Assembly: GCA_964546795.1 (NCBI GenBank)
Contig: CAZJKG010000003.1
Span: 22,305-86,304 of the forward strand
Length of the DNA: 64,000 nt
From: an uncultured Candidatus Saccharibacteria bacterium
GTDB taxonomy: Bacteria; Patescibacteriota; Minisyncoccia; Phycocordibacterales; Phycocordibacteraceae
Direction of reading: 5' to 3'
Made by a program: the position numbers and the translations under genes. The number at the start of each line of letters is the position of its first letter. The first letter of the stretch is position 1. The notes under the pieces were generated by a model that searched no databases, was not told the DNA's origin, and saw only the letters and a list, made by a program, of their open reading frames with translations. Shown here in pieces: positions 7,464 through 52,639 of the stretch.

Positions 7464-8339
7464 TTATTCGATTGGCTCGCGGTAGGGGTCAGTGGCGTAC
7501 GGTTTTGATGGAGCCGGAGATAGTGCGGGAGTCGCAGACGCACTCGTTGTCGGAGGAACAGCTTTTGGTTCCATGTTTCCTTGCGGAACCATGACGGGAG
7601 ATGCGACTCTGGGAGGAACCGTAAATGACGGACGGCCGCCGGCAGGAATAACGCCGGAGGGCATTGCGCCGGGCAGATTCGCCGGCGACATGCTTCTGGA
7701 CATTTCATTTTTCGTCGGAATCGGAAATGGTGCGGCTGGAGGTGTTGTTCTTATGGGAGCTGGGGACGATGGCGCAGCGGTCTTGCCGAATTCTATATGT
7801 GGCTCCTCATGGTCCTCAAGCAATGTGTTGCTGTTTATCGGTTTTGAAGTTCCTATCATAGTTGGTCGTTGTGAGTTCCCCATGACTTTTGAAGAAGGGA
7901 CAGTAGGTGATGATGGACGAAGAGGAATCTTGTTCTCCAGATGAAAATGACTTGCAGTGCCAGGGACGGGTATAGATACCGGAGGCGGCATAGTCGGTAC
8001 CAGCGTTTCTTTGTTTATTTGCGCGCTTTTCATTTCTTCCTGCCGCAAGGGAATAAAAACTTCTTGGTTAACATCGTTAATGATATCTAAAACGGTCTGT
8101 CTTGATACGGGCAACTGCGCATACAGTTCTGCTGCGAATTCATCCGGACTTTTTAGACCGAGAAGGAGGAACATGAGCTCCCGTTCAAGAATTGTTCCCT
8201 GGTCTATATGGAGCGCATACCGTTCCATAAGGAGACGAGCCGTTGCACCGAGTTTACGGTCCTCAAAAAATTTCTGGATAGGTAACGGTAATGTTGGAAG
8301 TATCTGGCGAATACTCTCTTCCAATGTTAGTTCAGCCAT
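7464..8339 (-). CDS. Hypothetical protein with a Pro/Ser/Thr-rich low-complexity C-terminal half
   Basis: 291 aa. N-terminal ~120 aa look globular; the C-terminal half is proline-rich. Last gene of a four-gene minus-strand operon. Confidence 0.55.
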   Translation of the reverse strand: MAELTLEESIRQILPTLPLPIQKFFEDRKLGATARLLMERYALHIDQGTILERELMFLLLGLKSPDEFAAELYAQLPVSRQTVLDIINDVNQEVFIPLRQEEMKSAQINKETLVPTMPPPVSIPVPGTASHFHLENKIPLRPSSPTVPSSKVMGNSQRPTMIGTSKPINSNTLLEDHEEPHIEFGKTAAPSSPAPIRTTPPAAPFPIPTKNEMSRSMSPANLPGAMPSGVIPAGGRPSFTVPPRVASPVMVPQGNMEPKAVPPTTSASATPALSPAPSKPYATDPYREPIE

Positions 8340-27623: not shown

Positions 27624-27666
27624 CAAATTGAAAAGCCCTTTGGGGCTTTTTCAATTTGTGCGGGTA
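27616..27666. terminator. 51-bp near-perfect palindrome starting inside the tRNA-Gly 3' acceptor strand; bidirectional-terminator-like
   Basis: TACCCGCACAAATTGAAAAGCCC-TTTG-GGGCTTTTTCAATTTGTGCGGGTA, about 23-bp arms with a T-run after the GC core. Confidence 0.55.
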
Positions 27667-27689
27667 AGCAGGCCAACTGCTTGGCCTGC

Positions 27690-27815
27690 GGGGGAGAATC
27701 GAAAGCCGGAGCATGTTTCGTTTCTGAACGAAATGGCGAGGCGGGGTCGCGGATACTTAGCGAGTCCTCGAGCTTAGTAAACCGTGACCGAAACTGTAAT
27801 CAGGGTTCTCCCGCA
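27690..27815 (+). ncRNA. Candidate structured RNA of unknown class
   Basis: A long-range closing helix (GCGGGGGAGAA paired with TTCTCCCGC) encloses several local hairpins, for example TTTCGTT-TCTG-AACGAAA. Contains no ORF. Strand and identity are uncertain. Confidence 0.3.
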
Positions 27816-28188
27816 CAGAAACAATGAGTGATGACGAACGAATTATTCGTGGCCGAAAGTGTAATCATGGTTTCATCGCATGCAATTTGACTTCTCACCG
27901 ACTTTTTTGTTAAAAAACTAACTATATAAGCTATTTTTGCGATAAAAAGCTTCTGTGGTGAAGTGTTGATAAAGGTGTTTACACTGGGGATAAAAGACAT
28001 GCGTCTGATAGCGTTTTTCTGAGGCAGTCCTAGAGTATACTGAGCAAATGAGCCATATTTCTAAAGGCCGTGCCCGGTAGGACAAAATGGCATTGTGTCT
28101 TCATACTTCAAAATATGATTTGCTCGTGTTCCGCGTATGCGTAACAATAAGACTATGACACTTACTAACATGGCGGACACTGAGAGTA

Positions 28189-28608
28189 ATGCCATCTTGT
28201 ACTGACCGGGCCGTGGACTTATCTTCTAGGACTCGCAAAGAAGTCGGTGCTTTGGGAGAAAAAGCGGCGGCTGAGTACTTCAAACGGCACGGATTTTCCA
28301 TTCGCGACCGCAATGTTGCGCGCAAGACCGGAGAACTTGATCTCATCATGGAGAAAGACGGTACGCTGCATTTTATTGAAGTGAAGACAATGCTCACGGA
28401 TGAATTCCCAAAAGAGGGGAACATTGAAGACGATTACGATCCATCATTCAACCTCCATGAAGCGAAGGTTCGGAAGGTCGCACGGACAGGAGAATGGTAC
28501 GCCGTTGAGAAAGAATGGGAAGGGGAGTGGCAGGTTGACGGATGTCTTGTATGGCTCCGCCGTCGGGACGGCATGGCACGGATCAGATACCTGCCACAAA
28601 TCGTCTAA
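28189..28608 (+). CDS. yraN: YraN/UPF0102 family endonuclease
   Basis: GE.AA..YL...G..I...N.R...GELDLI...DGTLHFIEVKT, matching the YraN pattern. Confidence 0.75.
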   Translation: MPSCTDRAVDLSSRTRKEVGALGEKAAAEYFKRHGFSIRDRNVARKTGELDLIMEKDGTLHFIEVKTMLTDEFPKEGNIEDDYDPSFNLHEAKVRKVARTGEWYAVEKEWEGEWQVDGCLVWLRRRDGMARIRYLPQIV

Positions 28609-29846: not shown

Positions 29847-29948
29847 TTGTATACGCTATCCTAAAAATGGTATTCTCGCACTACTTCGCTCCGTTAGGAA
29901 ACAGAGCTTCGAAGTGCACGGCACAGAGCGAAGTAGGGCTGGACGCGC

Positions 29949-30019
29949 GCGGGACTAGTTTAATGGTAGAACAGGAGGTTTCCAACCTCCTAGTGGGAGT
30001 TCGATTCTCCCGTCCCGCA
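29949..30019 (+). tRNA. tRNA-Gly (anticodon TCC), with CCA encoded at 30020-30022
   Basis: Acceptor GCGGGAC/GTCCCGC, anticodon loop TTTCCAA, T-arm GGGAG-TTCGATT-CTCCC. Confidence 0.85.
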
Positions 30020-30201
30020 CCATTGAGGAAATTGCAAGTTTTGAAGGTTCACCTTGCTTCGCTCGGCGACCGAATCGTACGGAGTTTTCGGGGCAAAAAG
30101 AAATTTCCGATTCCATTAGAAGCAGAAAAGAAAAATCTTCATAAGGATTTGGGGGGTGAAATGCCCTGAAATAGGGCTGTTTTGTTATTTTCGCACAAAC
30201 C

Positions 30202-30230
30202 TTGACTTTTCATTTTAAATATGCTAAATT
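30202..30230 (+). promoter_or_regulatory. Near-consensus sigma70 promoter TTGACT-17-TAAATT, followed by an operator-like palindrome at 30246-30264
   Basis: Read directly from the sequence. The palindrome is TTGAGTCA-TTA-TGGCTCAA (8-3-8, one mismatch). SD AAAGGAG lies 6 nt before the ATG at 30303. Confidence 0.5.
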
Positions 30231-30302
30231 AGCGACAGAACGACGTTGAGTCATTATGGCTCAATTCGCACATTCCAAACAGAAAACAGAAAGGAGCAAG
30301 CT

Positions 30303-30914
30303 ATGAACAACGATTCGAAATGGGGCGATCCTCGGGATTGCCAAGTTGAGGCCTCCTTCAGCGGCGAGTACGTCAAGGAGGTCGAAGTTCCAGAGAGGCG
30401 CGTCCTTGGCTTTCTCGTGAGAGATGCTAGAAGGAAGAAGGTGACAGCGTACGGCGATATCTCGACAGACAAGGGCGATATCGTTCCTGACGATGTCGAA
30501 GCACACAGGAAGTTCCAGTATCGTTGTGGCCTCATCAAGGCAATCAATGTCTTCTCTGCTAGTGAGTCCACGGTGACGATGTATCTCGACGGTTTCCCCA
30601 ATGTCTTTCTCGATGTGGGAGACACCGAGTTCAGGTTCGATCCGCAACTCGAGAACGGTCCCGTCACCGAGATCACCTATCAAGGACATTGCACTCGACG
30701 TGGCAAGATGCCGCACGGACGAAGGGACATTTTCGCCTCTCTGATCTTCAAGGATCAGAACCAAATGAAGGAGTTCGTTGTGGCCACCACGACCACGCCT
30801 GATCCAAAGACCGAGACGGTATACAGATCATCTGGCTATCGAAGTTCGAACATGGGCTCGTCGCTCTGGCCTCTCGCCGCCGGAGTTCTCCTCGGTGTCA
30901 CGATAAGCGAATAG
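30303..30914 (+). CDS. Orphan hypothetical protein (203 aa) with a C-terminal hydrophobic anchor, on a tRNA-flanked AT-rich islet
   Basis: MNNDSKWGDPRDCQVEASFSGEYVKEV...SSLWPLAAGVLLGVTISE. It uses AGA/AGG Arg codons and AAG Lys, whereas neighbouring genes favour CGC/CGG. Monocistronic, with its own promoter and terminator. Confidence 0.7.
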   Translation: MNNDSKWGDPRDCQVEASFSGEYVKEVEVPERRVLGFLVRDARRKKVTAYGDISTDKGDIVPDDVEAHRKFQYRCGLIKAINVFSASESTVTMYLDGFPNVFLDVGDTEFRFDPQLENGPVTEITYQGHCTRRGKMPHGRRDIFASLIFKDQNQMKEFVVATTTTPDPKTETVYRSSGYRSSNMGSSLWPLAAGVLLGVTISE

Positions 30915-30941
30915 AACGTCGTGAACCCGTCACACAGCCAC

Positions 30942-30980
30942 AGCCCACCATGTCTTCGGACCTCTGGTGGGCTTCTTTTT
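30942..30980 (+). terminator. Rho-independent terminator after the island gene
   Basis: AGCCCACCA-(14 nt)-TGGTGGGCT followed by TCTTTTTA. Confidence 0.6.
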
Positions 30981-31136
30981 ATGAATTTAAAAGAACACAG
31001 GATTTTCCGCCAATCAAAGCATTTTCAATAATTCCAAATTGAAAAATGCTTTGGAAGTTATTCTTAACCCATTAGAAAAACTTGAAATTGTCAGTTCGGA
31101 CTAATTCAAGTATTCTGCACATGAGGTCTTGAAATG

Positions 31137-31171
31137 AAAACAACGTGGCGCCAGAGGCGCCACGTTGTTTT
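31137..31171 (-). terminator. Perfect 16-bp-stem hairpin terminator downstream of hup
   Basis: AAAACAACGTGGCGCC-AGA-GGCGCCACGTTGTTTT. A/T runs flank both sides, so it could act bidirectionally. Confidence 0.6.
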
Positions 31172-31181
31172 TGCGAACCAA

Positions 31182-31454
31182 CTATTTGACCGCGTCTTTT
31201 AACGCCTTTGCGGCGCGAAACTTCGCTGTGCGACTTGCGGCGATATGTATCGTCTCGCCCGTGCGGGGATTGCGGCCTTGACGTGCAGGACGCGCTTTCG
31301 TCGCGAAGATTCCGAGACCGGCGATGGACACCTCGTCTCCGGATTTGAGACCTGAAACGATTGAGTCGATGACCGTCTCGACGACGCGCTCGGCGTCGGC
31401 TTTTGTTGAACCGAGAACTCCGTGTACCTTATCAACAATGTCTGCTTTATTCAT
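31182..31454 (-). CDS. hup: DNA-binding protein HU
   Basis: 90 aa: MNKADIVDKV...GLGIFATKARPARQGRNPRTGE... Confidence 0.93.
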   Translation of the reverse strand: MNKADIVDKVHGVLGSTKADAERVVETVIDSIVSGLKSGDEVSIAGLGIFATKARPARQGRNPRTGETIHIAASRTAKFRAAKALKDAVK

Positions 31455-46538: not shown

Positions 46539-46967
46539 ATGCGCTTCACTATCCATGCCGACGGGGGCGCGAGAGGGAATCCGGGGCCCGCGGGCGCGGG
46601 TGCCGTCATTCGGGATGAATTCGGGAACTCGGCCGCGAGCGTTTCAAAATTCCTCGGGCACCAGACAAATAATTTCGCGGAATACGAAGCGGTTATCCTT
46701 GCTTTTGAGGCATTATCAAAACTCGTCCCGATGATAGAGCATGACACGACGGAAGTTGTCGTGAAATTGGACAGCGAACTCGTCGTGAAGCAGATGAAGG
46801 GCTTATACAAAGTAAAGCATCCGGTCCTGAAGGAGCAGCAGGCGCGGCTCGCACAGGTCGCCGCGGCATTTGGCACCGTCTCTTTCACTCACGTCCCGCG
46901 TGAAGAGAATAGCGACGCCGATGCGCTCGCCAATGCTGCAATGGATAATGGGTTCGAACATGTATAA
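46539..46967 (+). CDS. rnhA: Ribonuclease HI
   Basis: IHADGGARGNPGPAG...NNFAEYEA...SDADALAN. Confidence 0.9.
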   Translation: MRFTIHADGGARGNPGPAGAGAVIRDEFGNSAASVSKFLGHQTNNFAEYEAVILAFEALSKLVPMIEHDTTEVVVKLDSELVVKQMKGLYKVKHPVLKEQQARLAQVAAAFGTVSFTHVPREENSDADALANAAMDNGFEHV

Positions 46968-47895
46968 CCCAACGAAACCATACAAACATAGGATTCTTAA
47001 ACTCATTGAAAGCACTTGGAAGACGCCTTATGTAAAAGTTGAGAAGGGATTATATCCAGTTTTTAAAAAGAATTTCTCTTTGTGGGAAGTTCAGCATACG
47101 GATGGTATTGGGACTAAGGGCTTTTACCACTGGCGGAAGCGAACCTTCAATAATGCGGTGCGAGACGCTCTTGCCATGAATTTAAATGATTTGGCGATGG
47201 TTGGCGCCATTCCGTATGCGCTCCAAAACCATATCGTTTTGCCAAAGGATGATCACAAAGCGATATTGGAGATAGTGAGAACATTGGCGGCAGAATGCAA
47301 GAAAAGAAACATTACTATGACAGGAGGAGAGACATCAATCCATTCTGATGCAAAAGGAATGGATATAAGCATTACCGTATCAGGTTTTCTTTCCAAAAAG
47401 TTCACGAATCAATGCAGGAATGGAGATGTCCTTTTGGGGCTTGCCAGCAATAGCATCCATTCGAACGGATTTACAAAAGTCAGGGAGGTCTTTGGGAATA
47501 CGTACAAAAAAGAATTCACAGAACCAACGAGGATATATCTGGAGGAGGTTCTTTCGATACTCGCCAAACACAAAGTGCATGGAATGATGCATATCACCGG
47601 CGGAGCATTCACGAAGCTGAAAGATATTCTAGGAAAGAATGATGCTGTCGTTTCTCAACCCAAAACGCTGCGACCGCAAAAGATCTTCTGTGATATGTAT
47701 GCAAAAGGACTCTTAAATAAAGTGATGTACTCAACCTTCAATTGCGGAATAGGATTTATCCTCTCGGTTCCTAAAAACGAGGTCTCAAAAATCCTCTCTC
47801 ATTCCCCCGACAGTGCCGTTATCGGAAAAGTGATTAGGGGAACCGGTAAGGTTCGTATCGTTTCTGCTTTTGACAGGAAAATCATAGAGTTGTAA
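46960..47895 (+). CDS. AIR-synthase-related (PurM-like) protein in an AT-rich segment (about 40% GC)
   Basis: HTDGIGTKGF...NDLAMVGAIP follows the PurM-superfamily pattern. The start is taken at MYNPTKP, overlapping the rnhA end by 8 bp. Composition differs sharply from neighbouring genes. Confidence 0.7.
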   Translation: MYNPTKPYKHRILKLIESTWKTPYVKVEKGLYPVFKKNFSLWEVQHTDGIGTKGFYHWRKRTFNNAVRDALAMNLNDLAMVGAIPYALQNHIVLPKDDHKAILEIVRTLAAECKKRNITMTGGETSIHSDAKGMDISITVSGFLSKKFTNQCRNGDVLLGLASNSIHSNGFTKVREVFGNTYKKEFTEPTRIYLEEVLSILAKHKVHGMMHITGGAFTKLKDILGKNDAVVSQPKTLRPQKIFCDMYAKGLLNKVMYSTFNCGIGFILSVPKNEVSKILSHSPDSAVIGKVIRGTGKVRIVSAFDRKIIEL

Positions 47896-51540: not shown

Positions 51541-52176
51541 ATGGACACTATTCTTCCGCTCATCGTTCTCATCCTCTCCATCATCGTGCACGAATTGGCG
51601 CACGGCTACGCCGCAAACTCTCTCGGTGACCCGACCGCCCGGTTAGCTGGCCGCCTCACCATGAACCCACTCTCTCACATCGATTTCATGGGCTCGATAG
51701 TCATCCCTGCGCTTCTCGTCTTTACCAACTCGCCTATACTCTTCGGTTGGGCGAAGCCCGTTCCCTATAACCCGTACAATCTAAGGAATCAGCGTTGGGG
51801 CGAAGCGTTTGTTGCAGTCGCCGGAAGCGCGACGAACATCCTCCTCGCACTTATTTTCGGATTCATCGTGCGTTTTGGTACTTCTATAGGGTTTGATGCA
51901 ACAGCTCTTTCGCTCGCCGCAACTATCGCGTTCATCAATCTCTTCCTCGGCCTTTTCAATCTCATTCCGTTCCCGCCGCTCGATGGTTTTACCACACTGC
52001 GCTCCGCGCTTCCGTGGCATCTTTCTTCCGGCCTACACCATCTGGAACAGCAGATCCGCAATGCGGGGGCTCTCTCGCTCATTCTGTTCCTTTTCATCTT
52101 TTCGTATCTGTTCGCGGGACCGTTTTTCAACCTCATCCTCTGGCTCTTCGGACTCATCACGGGCGGCAGTGTATAG
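51541..52176 (+). CDS. Site-2 protease family (peptidase M50) zinc metalloprotease
   Basis: HELAHG within TM1, a second LDGG-like motif (PPLDGF), multi-TM topology. Confidence 0.8.
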   Translation: MDTILPLIVLILSIIVHELAHGYAANSLGDPTARLAGRLTMNPLSHIDFMGSIVIPALLVFTNSPILFGWAKPVPYNPYNLRNQRWGEAFVAVAGSATNILLALIFGFIVRFGTSIGFDATALSLAATIAFINLFLGLFNLIPFPPLDGFTTLRSALPWHLSSGLHHLEQQIRNAGALSLILFLFIFSYLFAGPFFNLILWLFGLITGGSV

Positions 52177-52184
52177 TACGGCCT

Positions 52185-52445
52185 ATGGACTTCAATAAAA
52201 TCCCCAAGCAATTTTGTGAGAACGTCGTGGCAGGGCACTCGGGAGAGAATTTTGTCATGCTTATGAGTGTTGGTGAGACAGCGAACGCTTATGCTCTCAC
52301 GCCCCCTCATATGAAGCGTCTGGTGCAAAGTTTGTCTCATCAGGTTGCGGAATATGAGAAAAAGTTCGGCACCATACAAGCGAAATGGTCTCCAGGCATC
52401 GAGAGTCCGCTTCAATCCAAAGATATCAAGGGCAGCGGGGCATAA
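52185..52445 (+). CDS. Small hypothetical protein (86 aa), possibly DUF3467-like
   Basis: The start at MDFNKIPKQF... (ATG 52185) is chosen because the ORF-track start overlaps the upstream protease gene. Confidence 0.4.
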   Translation: MDFNKIPKQFCENVVAGHSGENFVMLMSVGETANAYALTPPHMKRLVQSLSHQVAEYEKKFGTIQAKWSPGIESPLQSKDIKGSGA

Positions 52446-52450
52446 TACGC

Positions 52451-52639
52451 TTAGAACCCATCTCAAAAATAACCGTGAGAAATAACCGGAAGCCCGCTTG
52501 GCCGCTGCGACGCGGATTTTCCGGCTCCGGCAGGTAGCGGCTCGAACTCGGCGTATCTCGATACGCCTCGTTCTCTGCCGACCCGCCTCGCTCGGAAAAT
52601 CCGCGTCTCGCCAGGCCATTATTTTTGAGATGGGTTCTA
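52451..52639. repeat. 189-bp nested palindromic element with 21-bp perfect terminal inverted repeats
   Basis: Outer IR TAGAACCCATCTCAAAAATAA / TTATTTTTGAGATGGGTTCTA. Inner IR GACGCGGATTTTCCG / CGGAAAATCCGCGTC. Central palindrome GGCGTATC-TC-GATACGCC. Lies directly upstream of the T4SS-like gene set. Confidence 0.6.

Follow-up and report, generated by a model that had tools for sequence, protein, structure and literature searches.

What lies between the tRNA-Gly(TCC) gene and hup in this uncultured Candidatus Saccharibacteria bacterium, and how did it get there? In the 64,000-nt stretch of contig CAZJKG010000003.1 analyzed here (hereafter the window; mean GC content 51.6%), ARAGORN and Rfam both place tRNA-Gly(TCC) at 29949-30022 on the plus strand, and hup lies convergently at 31182-31454 on the minus strand. 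Between them, preceded by 280 nt and followed by 267 nt of noncoding sequence, is an open reading frame (ORF) of 203 amino acids with an ATG start (30303-30914, plus strand). An earlier inspection of the letters without database searches (the sequence-only reading) had identified this tRNA gene and ORF and had proposed that they mark a horizontally acquired module. We consider it likely that 30023-31121 is a derivative of an integrative element of the Candidate Phyla Radiation (CPR) that is built around a large serine recombinase (LSR), and that this derivative, which sits at the CCA end of tRNA-Gly(TCC), has kept a single cargo gene and lost the recombinase.

Rarity and insertion sites of the orphan gene

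The 203-aa protein has 16 close homologs, at 45-100% identity, versus more than 8,000 homologs at 84% identity or above for RNase Y, which is encoded nearby in the window and whose best homologs are labeled Paceibacterota, Kaiserbacteria and Parcubacteria. A profile search of 1.8 billion representatives yielded 70 clusters at 50% identity, and a scan of GTDB genomes with the protein profile yielded one locus only; a scan of IMG/VR for the protein found none. Those homologs that carry a lineage name come from Komeilibacteria, Falkowbacteria and Buchananbacteria. By the labels of these two sets of homologs, the window belongs to a CPR bacterium that is Paceibacteria-like.

The gene is monocistronic at every locus, and its neighbors differ from locus to locus. 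What recurs is a co-oriented tRNA gene upstream. Related loci that we fetched for comparison with the window are designated by L-numbers, and the tRNA genes and distances are tRNA-Gly(TCC) and 280 nt in the window, tRNA-Leu(TAA) and 282 nt in L001, tRNA-Cys followed by tRNA-Leu(TAA) and 103 nt in L002 and L003, tRNA-Arg(GCG) and 144 nt in L006 and L007, and tRNA-Lys(CTT) and 334 nt in L009 and L010. A co-oriented tRNA no more than 335 nt upstream was found in five of the seven evaluable contexts; as a background, 19 of 348 ORFs have one within 700 nt. When the window is compared with L001 (GCA_030647755.1), the cassette with its flanks is the only homologous DNA (86.6% identity over 1,033 nt; dS 0.29, and 86.5% identity for the flanks). 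Conversely, the cassette is absent downstream of hup in L014-L016, and L015 and L016 retain the NusA-PPase-ClpP-rny-hup synteny. The rarity of the gene, its association with four tRNA species, and the existence of syntenic relatives without it support the proposal of an inserted, horizontally mobile module beside the tRNA.

The ends of the insertion can be placed precisely. In an alignment of seven loci, with tRNA Gly-TCC, Leu-TAA (three loci), Lys-TTT and two pseudo-tRNA ends, homology starts exactly after GCACCA, and the sequences to the left of GCACCA are unrelated. In the window, this motif is the encoded 3' end of tRNA-Gly(TCC) (30017-30022), and the insertion starts at 30023, one base after the CCA. 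The right end of the cassette, AGTTCGGACTAATTCAAGTATTCTGCACA (31094-31121, plus strand), resembles a tRNA 3' end (TTCG...GCAC(C)A), and homology stops at its GCAC(C)A in the window (31117-31121), L001, L027, L028, L037, L088 and L089. Chromosomal homology with relatives resumes at 31136. The hup terminator that the sequence-only reading had recognized on the far side is a perfect 16-bp palindrome at 31137-31171 and is chromosomal, lying outside the insertion. That reading had also pointed to 31100-31180 as the place for a repeat of the tRNA 3' end; a boundary is present there, at 31117-31121, but no repeat longer than GCAC(C)A. The window pairs GCACCA on the left with GCACA on the right, and L001 has GCACCA at both ends. 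Several related loci, among them L009, which carries an orthologue, have partial repeats of tRNA 3' ends that are 11-21 nt long, with a TTGAC promoter directly after them.

Separately, we observed a 21-nt exact repeat of the tRNA-Ser(GCT) 3' end in L001 (L001:553-830), 175 nt after tRNA-Ser(GCT), with the TTGACT promoter of a ClpB-like gene directly after the repeat. The combination of a tRNA-end repeat with a promoter is also seen in L025, L091 and L009.

The tRNA-Gly(TCC) end has been used by at least one other element. L015 contains an insertion of ~5 kb at the 3' end of tRNA-Gly(TCC) (L015:12000-17439) with rny-hup conserved, and its genes include one for a DUF87/HerA-like ATPase, an HTH_17 excisionase-like gene, and one for a different LSR of 555 aa that overlaps the tRNA end. 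Because this different LSR adjoins it, we regard the tRNA-Gly(TCC) 3' flank as an insertion site in this clade.

Composition does not single out the gene in the way that the sequence-only reading, with its AT-rich islet and foreign codon usage, had suggested. The AT-richness (37-40% GC) is confined to the flanks at 30100-30300 and 30900-31200, and the ORF itself, at 53.8% GC against the window mean and with a GC content at third codon positions (GC3) of 0.647, falls within the range of the other 58 window genes. The noted codon excesses are real, as 8 of 15 arginine codons are AGA/AGG (background 14%) and 10 of 11 lysine codons are AAG (background 46%), but they do not amount to foreignness: the overall synonymous-codon score (leave-one-out likelihood) gives z = -1.04, rank 22 of 59 genes. 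AGA/AGG make up at least half of the arginine codons in 7 of the 59 genes, and the preference of the ORF for AAG and GAG is like that of highly expressed window genes (EF-Tu, ribosomal proteins). Since its orthologues use AGA/AGG for just 1-3 of their 10-13 arginine codons, the excess is a quirk private to the window copy. GC, GC3 and codon score give no sign of foreignness in the ORF.

Elsewhere in the window, 60739-63303, 46921-47895, 51789-52619 and 7464-8339 are stronger codon and GC outliers (z -4.8 to -7.1), with GC down to 0.39 and one arginine-rich ORF having 23 of 44 AGR codons. These genes look far more 'foreign' than the 203-aa ORF.

Such native composition raises the question of whether the gene is simply an ordinary resident, inherited vertically in a few CPR lineages, with rearrangement at tRNAs changing its neighborhood and with a promoter and terminator that are the lineage's preferred signals. 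Its GC, GC3 and overall codon usage fit this explanation, the GC of its orthologues (0.48 to 0.61) may track that of their hosts, and L001 and L002 share the synteny of IF-2, tRNA-Cys, tRNA-Leu and the gene. Nonetheless, homology that begins exactly at the tRNA end, and at different tRNA species, together with a mere 16 homologs when neighboring genes have thousands, makes vertical residence improbable in our judgment, and the flanks of the gene bear further on this point.

Expression signals and flanks common to unrelated genes

Upstream of the 203-aa gene, we located the near-consensus promoter TTGACT-17-TAAATT that the sequence-only reading had reported (30202-30230, plus strand), which also has a TG extended -10, and the Shine-Dalgarno sequence AAAGGAG (30290-30296), 6 nt 5' of the ATG. 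The start of transcription would lie near 30237. A promoter scan found 2 promoter-like sites where 2.1 are expected in shuffled sequence; because the scan does not rise above shuffled sequence, support for the promoter comes from its conservation in orthologous loci. The same form, CTTGACTTTT...TATGCTAnAnT, occurs upstream of unrelated cargo genes, although a proponent of the resident gene could answer that TTGAC-N17-TGnTAnAnT is a generic strong promoter form. A small hairpin followed by a T-run (GCCCTGAAATAGGGC, 30163-30187) precedes the promoter. It is terminator-like and conserved in L001, L082 and L098, and weak when taken alone (z -1.0); it probably insulates the cargo promoter from read-through.

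A palindrome, TTGAGTCA-TTA-TGGCTCAA, is present in the 5' untranslated region (UTR) at 30246-30264, where the sequence-only reading had seen an operator. The sequence stands, but we rejected the operator interpretation and read the palindrome as an RNA stem-loop, because a U-G pair is retained, compensatory changes affect three of the six pairs across five orthologous UTRs, and the structure is missing in L002 and L006 (fold z -1.6). The palindrome belongs to the cargo and not to the backbone. The stem-loop probably stabilizes or regulates the mRNA. Alignments of orthologous loci show a further conserved 5'-UTR box, TCGCACATTCC, at 30266-30276.

The gene is followed by an intrinsic terminator (30942-30981), in agreement with the rho-independent terminator previously noted at 30942-30980. 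Its hairpin (30942-30974) and U-run fold at -19.8 kcal/mol (z -3.9), and it consists of a 9-bp outer stem, an inner GUC-UUCG-GAC hairpin and the U-run. The stem covaries among loci, from CCCACCA/TGGTGGG to CCCGCCA/TGGCGGG, with the inner hairpin and an internal loop invariant.

Few of the loci with this terminator contain the 203-aa gene. The 26-nt terminator core, CCRCCAYGTCTTCKGACCTCTGGYGG (30945-30970), has no second copy within the window but matches 79 stretches in JGI metagenomes, just 2 of which encode the 203-aa protein family. In the remaining loci, this hairpin with its U-run stands behind ~66 ORFs, which group into 51 unrelated clusters. Judged by eye from motifs only, with no library, these seem to include NUDIX-, HIT-, SPFH- and Gam-like proteins, membrane proteins and many ORFans.

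Larger flanking modules, termed UP and DN, are shared as well. Each is ~100 nt long and 85-95% identical around unrelated genes, and they occur in at least 13 loci with other cargo (e.g., L082, L037, L062, L050, L088 and L098). The upstream module has the pattern ...GGGGCAAAAAGAAATTCCCGATTCCGTTAGAAGCAGAAAAGAAAAATTTTCATAAGG...GGCCTGAAATAGGGCTGTTTTTGTTATCTTCGCACAAACCTTGACTTTTC...; in the window, it comprises UP1 (30023-30116, plus strand), which directly follows the tRNA CCA, and UP2, to which the small hairpin ahead of the promoter belongs. The order in the downstream module is TTTTTAATAATTTGAAAGAACAAAGAATTTGCCGCC, a hairpin, AGAAAAACTTGAAATTGTC, a GC-rich core of ~70 nt, and GGTTCGGACTAATTCAAGAATAnnGCACCA, and the GC-rich core of other copies is deleted in the window copy. 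The first part of DN (30982-31073, plus strand) consists of AAAGAACACAGGATTTTCCGCC, a variable hairpin (31015-31053) and a spacer, and is common to L001, L028, L037, L050, L082, L088 and L089. In L082, the promoter region and terminator of the window enclose the gene of an unrelated membrane protein of 219 aa, and a 263-aa Cys-rich cargo is found after tRNA-Leu in L037 and after tRNA-Lys in L062. The expression cassette is therefore not 'private', as it had been called: its promoter region, terminator and outer flanks are common to many unrelated cargo genes. That the terminator core, with its conserved internal loop, and modules of this length flank unrelated genes is difficult to reconcile with a resident gene that uses its lineage's preferred signals.

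We also considered whether the flanks encode a structured RNA. The region 31005-31125, which extends to the right end of the cassette, has a folding z of -4.1. The DN element is ARAGORN-negative and shows 3 compensatory pairs in 6 near-identical copies, and Rfam, run on the window and six flank-bearing loci, returned tRNAs only, plus matches far below gathering scores. Long terminal inverted repeats were considered too; the candidate 13-nt pair is not conserved in L001 and was rejected as chance.

Two observations on related loci are worth recording. L091 (reverse strand of a 3.2-kb contig) has two tandem, array-like cassettes after tRNA-Arg(GCG). In each, the shared promoter form and the conserved terminator enclose an unrelated gene of 191 aa, one of which looks NUDIX-like by eye. 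In ~20 of the 79 terminator loci (e.g., L021, L042, L059, L072 and L094), a second conserved hairpin, GGACTGAGCAGACCAACTGCTCC, lies directly 5' of the terminator; it may be part of a two-hairpin 3' element or the mark of a different element subfamily.

Traces of a large serine recombinase

In three related loci, this backbone contains an intact LSR gene. In L089, from Hainich groundwater, tRNA-Leu(TAA) is followed by UP1 and then by a 536-codon LSR ORF on the opposite strand, in which a direct Pfam run found the domains Resolvase, Recombinase and Zn_ribbon_recom, and whose last ~60 codons lie on the reverse complement of UP1 and the tRNA. On the 5' side of the LSR ATG is an inverted copy of the arrangement DN element, GGGCACCA, UP1, in which the right end of the cassette joins its left end through a tRNA-like core; beyond this copy follow UP2, the promoter, the 263-aa cargo gene, the conserved terminator and the DN module. 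L098 (GCA_964399045.1) and L099 (Adlerbacteria GW2011_GWB1_54_7, tRNA-Phe) have the same architecture, with Resolvase, Recombinase and Zn_ribbon domains according to precomputed Pfam annotation. In all three loci, the LSR gene converges on the tRNA. A fourth locus, L050, consists of a pseudo-tRNA end, UP1, LSR codons 1-52 fused to the last ~9 codons, UP2, promoter, cargo and terminator; its LSR is internally deleted.

Pieces of this LSR locus are found on both sides of the 203-aa gene. On the left, 30017-30143 is ~88% identical to the L089 (copy B) region between GCACCA and the LSR ATG, and a tblastn search with LSR residues 459-498 matches UP1 of the window (E 1.6e-9). UP1 is also present in L001, L062, L050, L098 and L099. 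In LSR-bearing relatives, it lies between the tRNA or pseudo-tRNA end and the LSR start codon, and the convergent LSR ORF extends through it with its 3' end on the opposite strand. Next to UP1, 30117-30149 (TAGAAGCAGAAAAGAAAAATCTTCATAAGGATT, plus strand) matches the sequence directly after the LSR stop codon, and relatives have this repeat on both sides of the LSR gene, just 5' of the ATG and right behind the stop. A repeat of ~30 nt, AGAAGCAGAAAAGAAAAATTTTAATCAT, flanks the LSR gene in intact loci, and recombination across it would give a fusion of UP1 to UP2 without the LSR, as is found in the window, L001 and L062. The segment 30117-30149 is likely to be the junction left by such a deletion. 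On the right, 31074-31092 (AGAAAAACTTGAAATTGTC, plus strand) is identical at 19 of 19 positions to LSR codons 34-40, and from this match we read it as a relic fragment of the recombinase gene; by eye, AAAGAACACAGGATTTTCCGCC resembles LSR codons ~28-33. These LSR-locus fragments in the flanks also tell against an ordinary resident gene.

The LSR itself belongs to a large family, with more than 7,600 homologs in CPR lineages. The best 120 of these are at least 75% identical, and the named ones come from Adler-, Brenner-, Lipton-, Kuenen-, Giovannoni-, Moran-, Jorgensen- and Wolfebacteria. The C-terminal length varies among homologs, which would be expected of an ORF that extends into the attachment site, and 26-nt inverted repeats (AAAAACATCGGCTCGAACCAYATTTT) lie at the LSR 3' end in intact loci. 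The DN element, GCACCA and UP1 are directly joined in L089, L098 and L050, a junction that has the look of a candidate attP; a 52-bp palindrome at the LSR 3' end is another candidate.

Could the cassette instead be what is left of a prophage, namely a classical phage moron that, together with the attachment region, outlasted the rest of the prophage? Promoter, gene and terminator form one unit beside a tRNA, LSRs are common phage integrases, and two IMG/VR contigs carry partial relatives of the LSR. Against this origin, no phage structural or replication genes were seen in any LSR or cassette locus examined, and none of 2.9 million IMG/VR contigs contains the terminator core. PHROGs gave no match, and the match to a phage database was to the tRNA only. 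Furthermore, no other mobile-element gene stands between the LSR and the single cargo gene in the three intact loci. We accordingly give a prophage remnant little credence.

The LSR relatives on the two predicted viral contigs (L096:1-900 and L097:1-900) are 72% identical and are cut after ~117 codons at the contig edge. They look like a recombinase gene interrupted by the insertion of another element.

Returning to the LSR-derived element, its likely history is as follows. An intact element encodes an LSR and lies exactly at the 3' CCA end of a tRNA gene. Its single cargo gene is framed by a strong promoter and a terminator that are both standard, and its far end is a sequence like a tRNA 3' end that finishes in GCACCA. 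The LSR would catalyze insertion. In the window, the LSR gene would later have been lost, probably by recombination between the flanking ~30-nt repeats; what remains is the region upstream of it, the sequence that follows its stop codon and 19 nt from its 5' coding region. The cargo resembles a phage moron in being an autonomous transcription unit, whose signals are an extended -10 promoter, a stem-loop in the 5' UTR, a strong Shine-Dalgarno sequence and a very stable terminator. It would be expressed, and its product would probably be located at the membrane. The sequences themselves show the anatomy, the common flanks, the LSR fragments, the ends at GCACCA, the varying tRNA sites and the purifying selection on the gene.

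Several points weigh against this account. The window has no recombinase gene, and the LSR link depends on short fragments and related loci. Although the cassette is missing in L015 and L016, no close relative turned up with an exactly empty tRNA-Gly(TCC)-hup site. The end repeat is no longer than GCAC(C)A; its right copy in the window is degenerate, and by itself the repeat would be unconvincing. LSRs usually need att sites of ~40-50 bp and leave no long direct repeats, and a clean scheme of attL, attR and attP could not be derived from L089, L098, L099 and L050, whose inverted duplications could not be disentangled. The native-like composition of the ORF means that the transfer must be old or have come from a closely related gene pool. 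Finally, most of the 79 terminator loci have only the terminator in common, so there may be more than one element family or another cause of conservation.

A broader proposal is that the cassette represents an undescribed and very widespread class of miniature LSR elements in CPR, with a tRNA-like attP and insertion after the CCA of many tRNAs, which would act as an integron-like single-gene shuttle with a promoter/terminator 'expression socket', the 203-aa cargo being a new fold. We offer this package tentatively and lean slightly against it as a whole.

The cargo protein and comparison with known systems

Pairwise ratios of nonsynonymous to synonymous substitution rates (dN/dS) of 0.15-0.27 show that the 203-aa ORF is a real gene under purifying selection. 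Its product has the invariant motifs WGDPRxxQ, CGLIKAINV, YLDGF, GPVAEI, CTRRG, FKDQxQM and WPLAAG. AlphaFold2 predicts an all-beta domain at residues ~10-165, with a predicted local distance difference test score of ~90, and disorder from residue 169 onward. The N-terminus is polar and conserved (WGDPRDCQ); after the domain come a Ser/Gly-rich linker and, near the C-terminus, a hydrophobic tail, LWPLAAGVLLGVTI. The hydrophobic run (188-201) has just ~14 residues, with W189, P190, A192 and G194 invariant, is modeled with low confidence and does not occur in every homolog: some are shorter and lack the tail, and others, of 250-300 aa, run on into acidic or Gly-rich tails. Because the tail is so short, membrane anchoring is no more than plausible; the tail would probably hold the protein at the membrane with its domain in the cytoplasm.

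As the sequence-only reading had stated, the protein matches no family in Pfam, NCBIfam, PHROGs, PADLOC or the PDB sequence profile. Its distant homologs are likewise without a match; for the protein and these homologs taken together, the only Pfam results are the sub-threshold DUF5092 (E 0.074) and PPV_E2_C (E 0.005), and no structural match to the AlphaFold2 model was found.

Accessory, mobile, tRNA-adjacent single genes are often defense-related, and the cargo could be a defense, toxin or exclusion module, with a membrane-tethered effector under a repressor-controlled operator. The gene is of just that accessory, mobile, tRNA-adjacent kind, its product has a membrane-type tail, and a palindrome follows its promoter. 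Yet PADLOC, Pfam and PDB yielded nothing similar to the protein, the unrelated neighborhoods of the gene contain neither an antitoxin nor a partner gene, and the palindrome behaves as an RNA hairpin that some orthologues lack. We regard a role in defense as unlikely, and the earlier guess of a toxin or abortive-infection protein, with no PADLOC match and no conserved partner gene, found no support. This question concerns the function of the cargo alone, and either answer is compatible with an LSR-derived element.

How does such an element compare with those already known? The chromosome cassettes of staphylococci (SCC and pseudo-SCC) are moved by Ccr large serine recombinases. Like them, the elements described here are small chromosomal cassettes that are associated with LSRs, occupy one fixed kind of site, carry variable cargo, have recombinase-less derivatives at the same site and are bounded by short repeats. 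Unlike SCC, which targets rlmH, they are found at the CCA end of many tRNA genes and in CPR hosts; they are far smaller (an LSR plus one gene), have a standardized promoter and terminator for each cargo, and are known from sequence alone. Genomic islands and integrative elements that target tRNA genes usually use tyrosine integrases. Insertion at the tRNA 3' end, regeneration of the tRNA end, a distal repeat that resembles it, a patchy distribution and common decayed remnants without an integrase are shared with these islands, whereas the recombinase here is a serine enzyme, the repeat is ~6-8 nt, many tRNA species are involved, the element is ~1-3 kb long and the cargo shows no compositional deviation.

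Phage morons are promoter-gene-terminator units in lambdoid prophages, and the cassette is like them in being a single accessory gene with its own sigma-70 promoter and intrinsic terminator, which would be expressed independently of its neighbors. It differs in that it lies outside any phage genome, with no phage genes in the window neighborhood or related loci, and in that the promoter and terminator sequences are themselves conserved across cargo genes. Integron cassettes provide another likeness, as they too are many unrelated single-gene units with conserved recombination-associated flanks at one type of site. What one source says of integron cassettes is that they are mostly promoterless (PMC8876359), whereas the cassette here has its own promoter and terminator and the only associated recombinase is a serine enzyme; no IntI tyrosine recombinase, attC or attI was seen at the cassette. 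We found no description of elements such as these in the literature searched.

CPR bacteria (Patescibacteria) have tiny genomes and poorly known mobile elements. If our interpretation is correct, an LSR element that targets tRNA 3' ends would explain how accessory and often ORFan genes are exchanged among them, one gene per move within a uniform promoter/terminator frame. Two tools would also follow from it: a small serine integrase of natural origin whose target is ubiquitous, and expression signals ready for use in organisms for which genetic tools are lacking. Annotators should treat AT-rich 'intergenic' DNA beside CPR tRNA genes as element backbone instead of gene-specific regulation.

Two minor features of the window remain to be mentioned. 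A stretch of ~560 nt between tRNA-Gly(GCC) and a YraN-family gene (27625-28190) is apparently noncoding and partly AT-rich, with no similarity to any fetched locus. Two spurious ORFs cross the tRNA-Gly(TCC) gene, one of 100 aa on the plus strand (29867-30169) and one of 53 aa on the minus strand (29955-30116), and peptides of the '...GESNS...' type are translations of the reverse-complemented T-arm.

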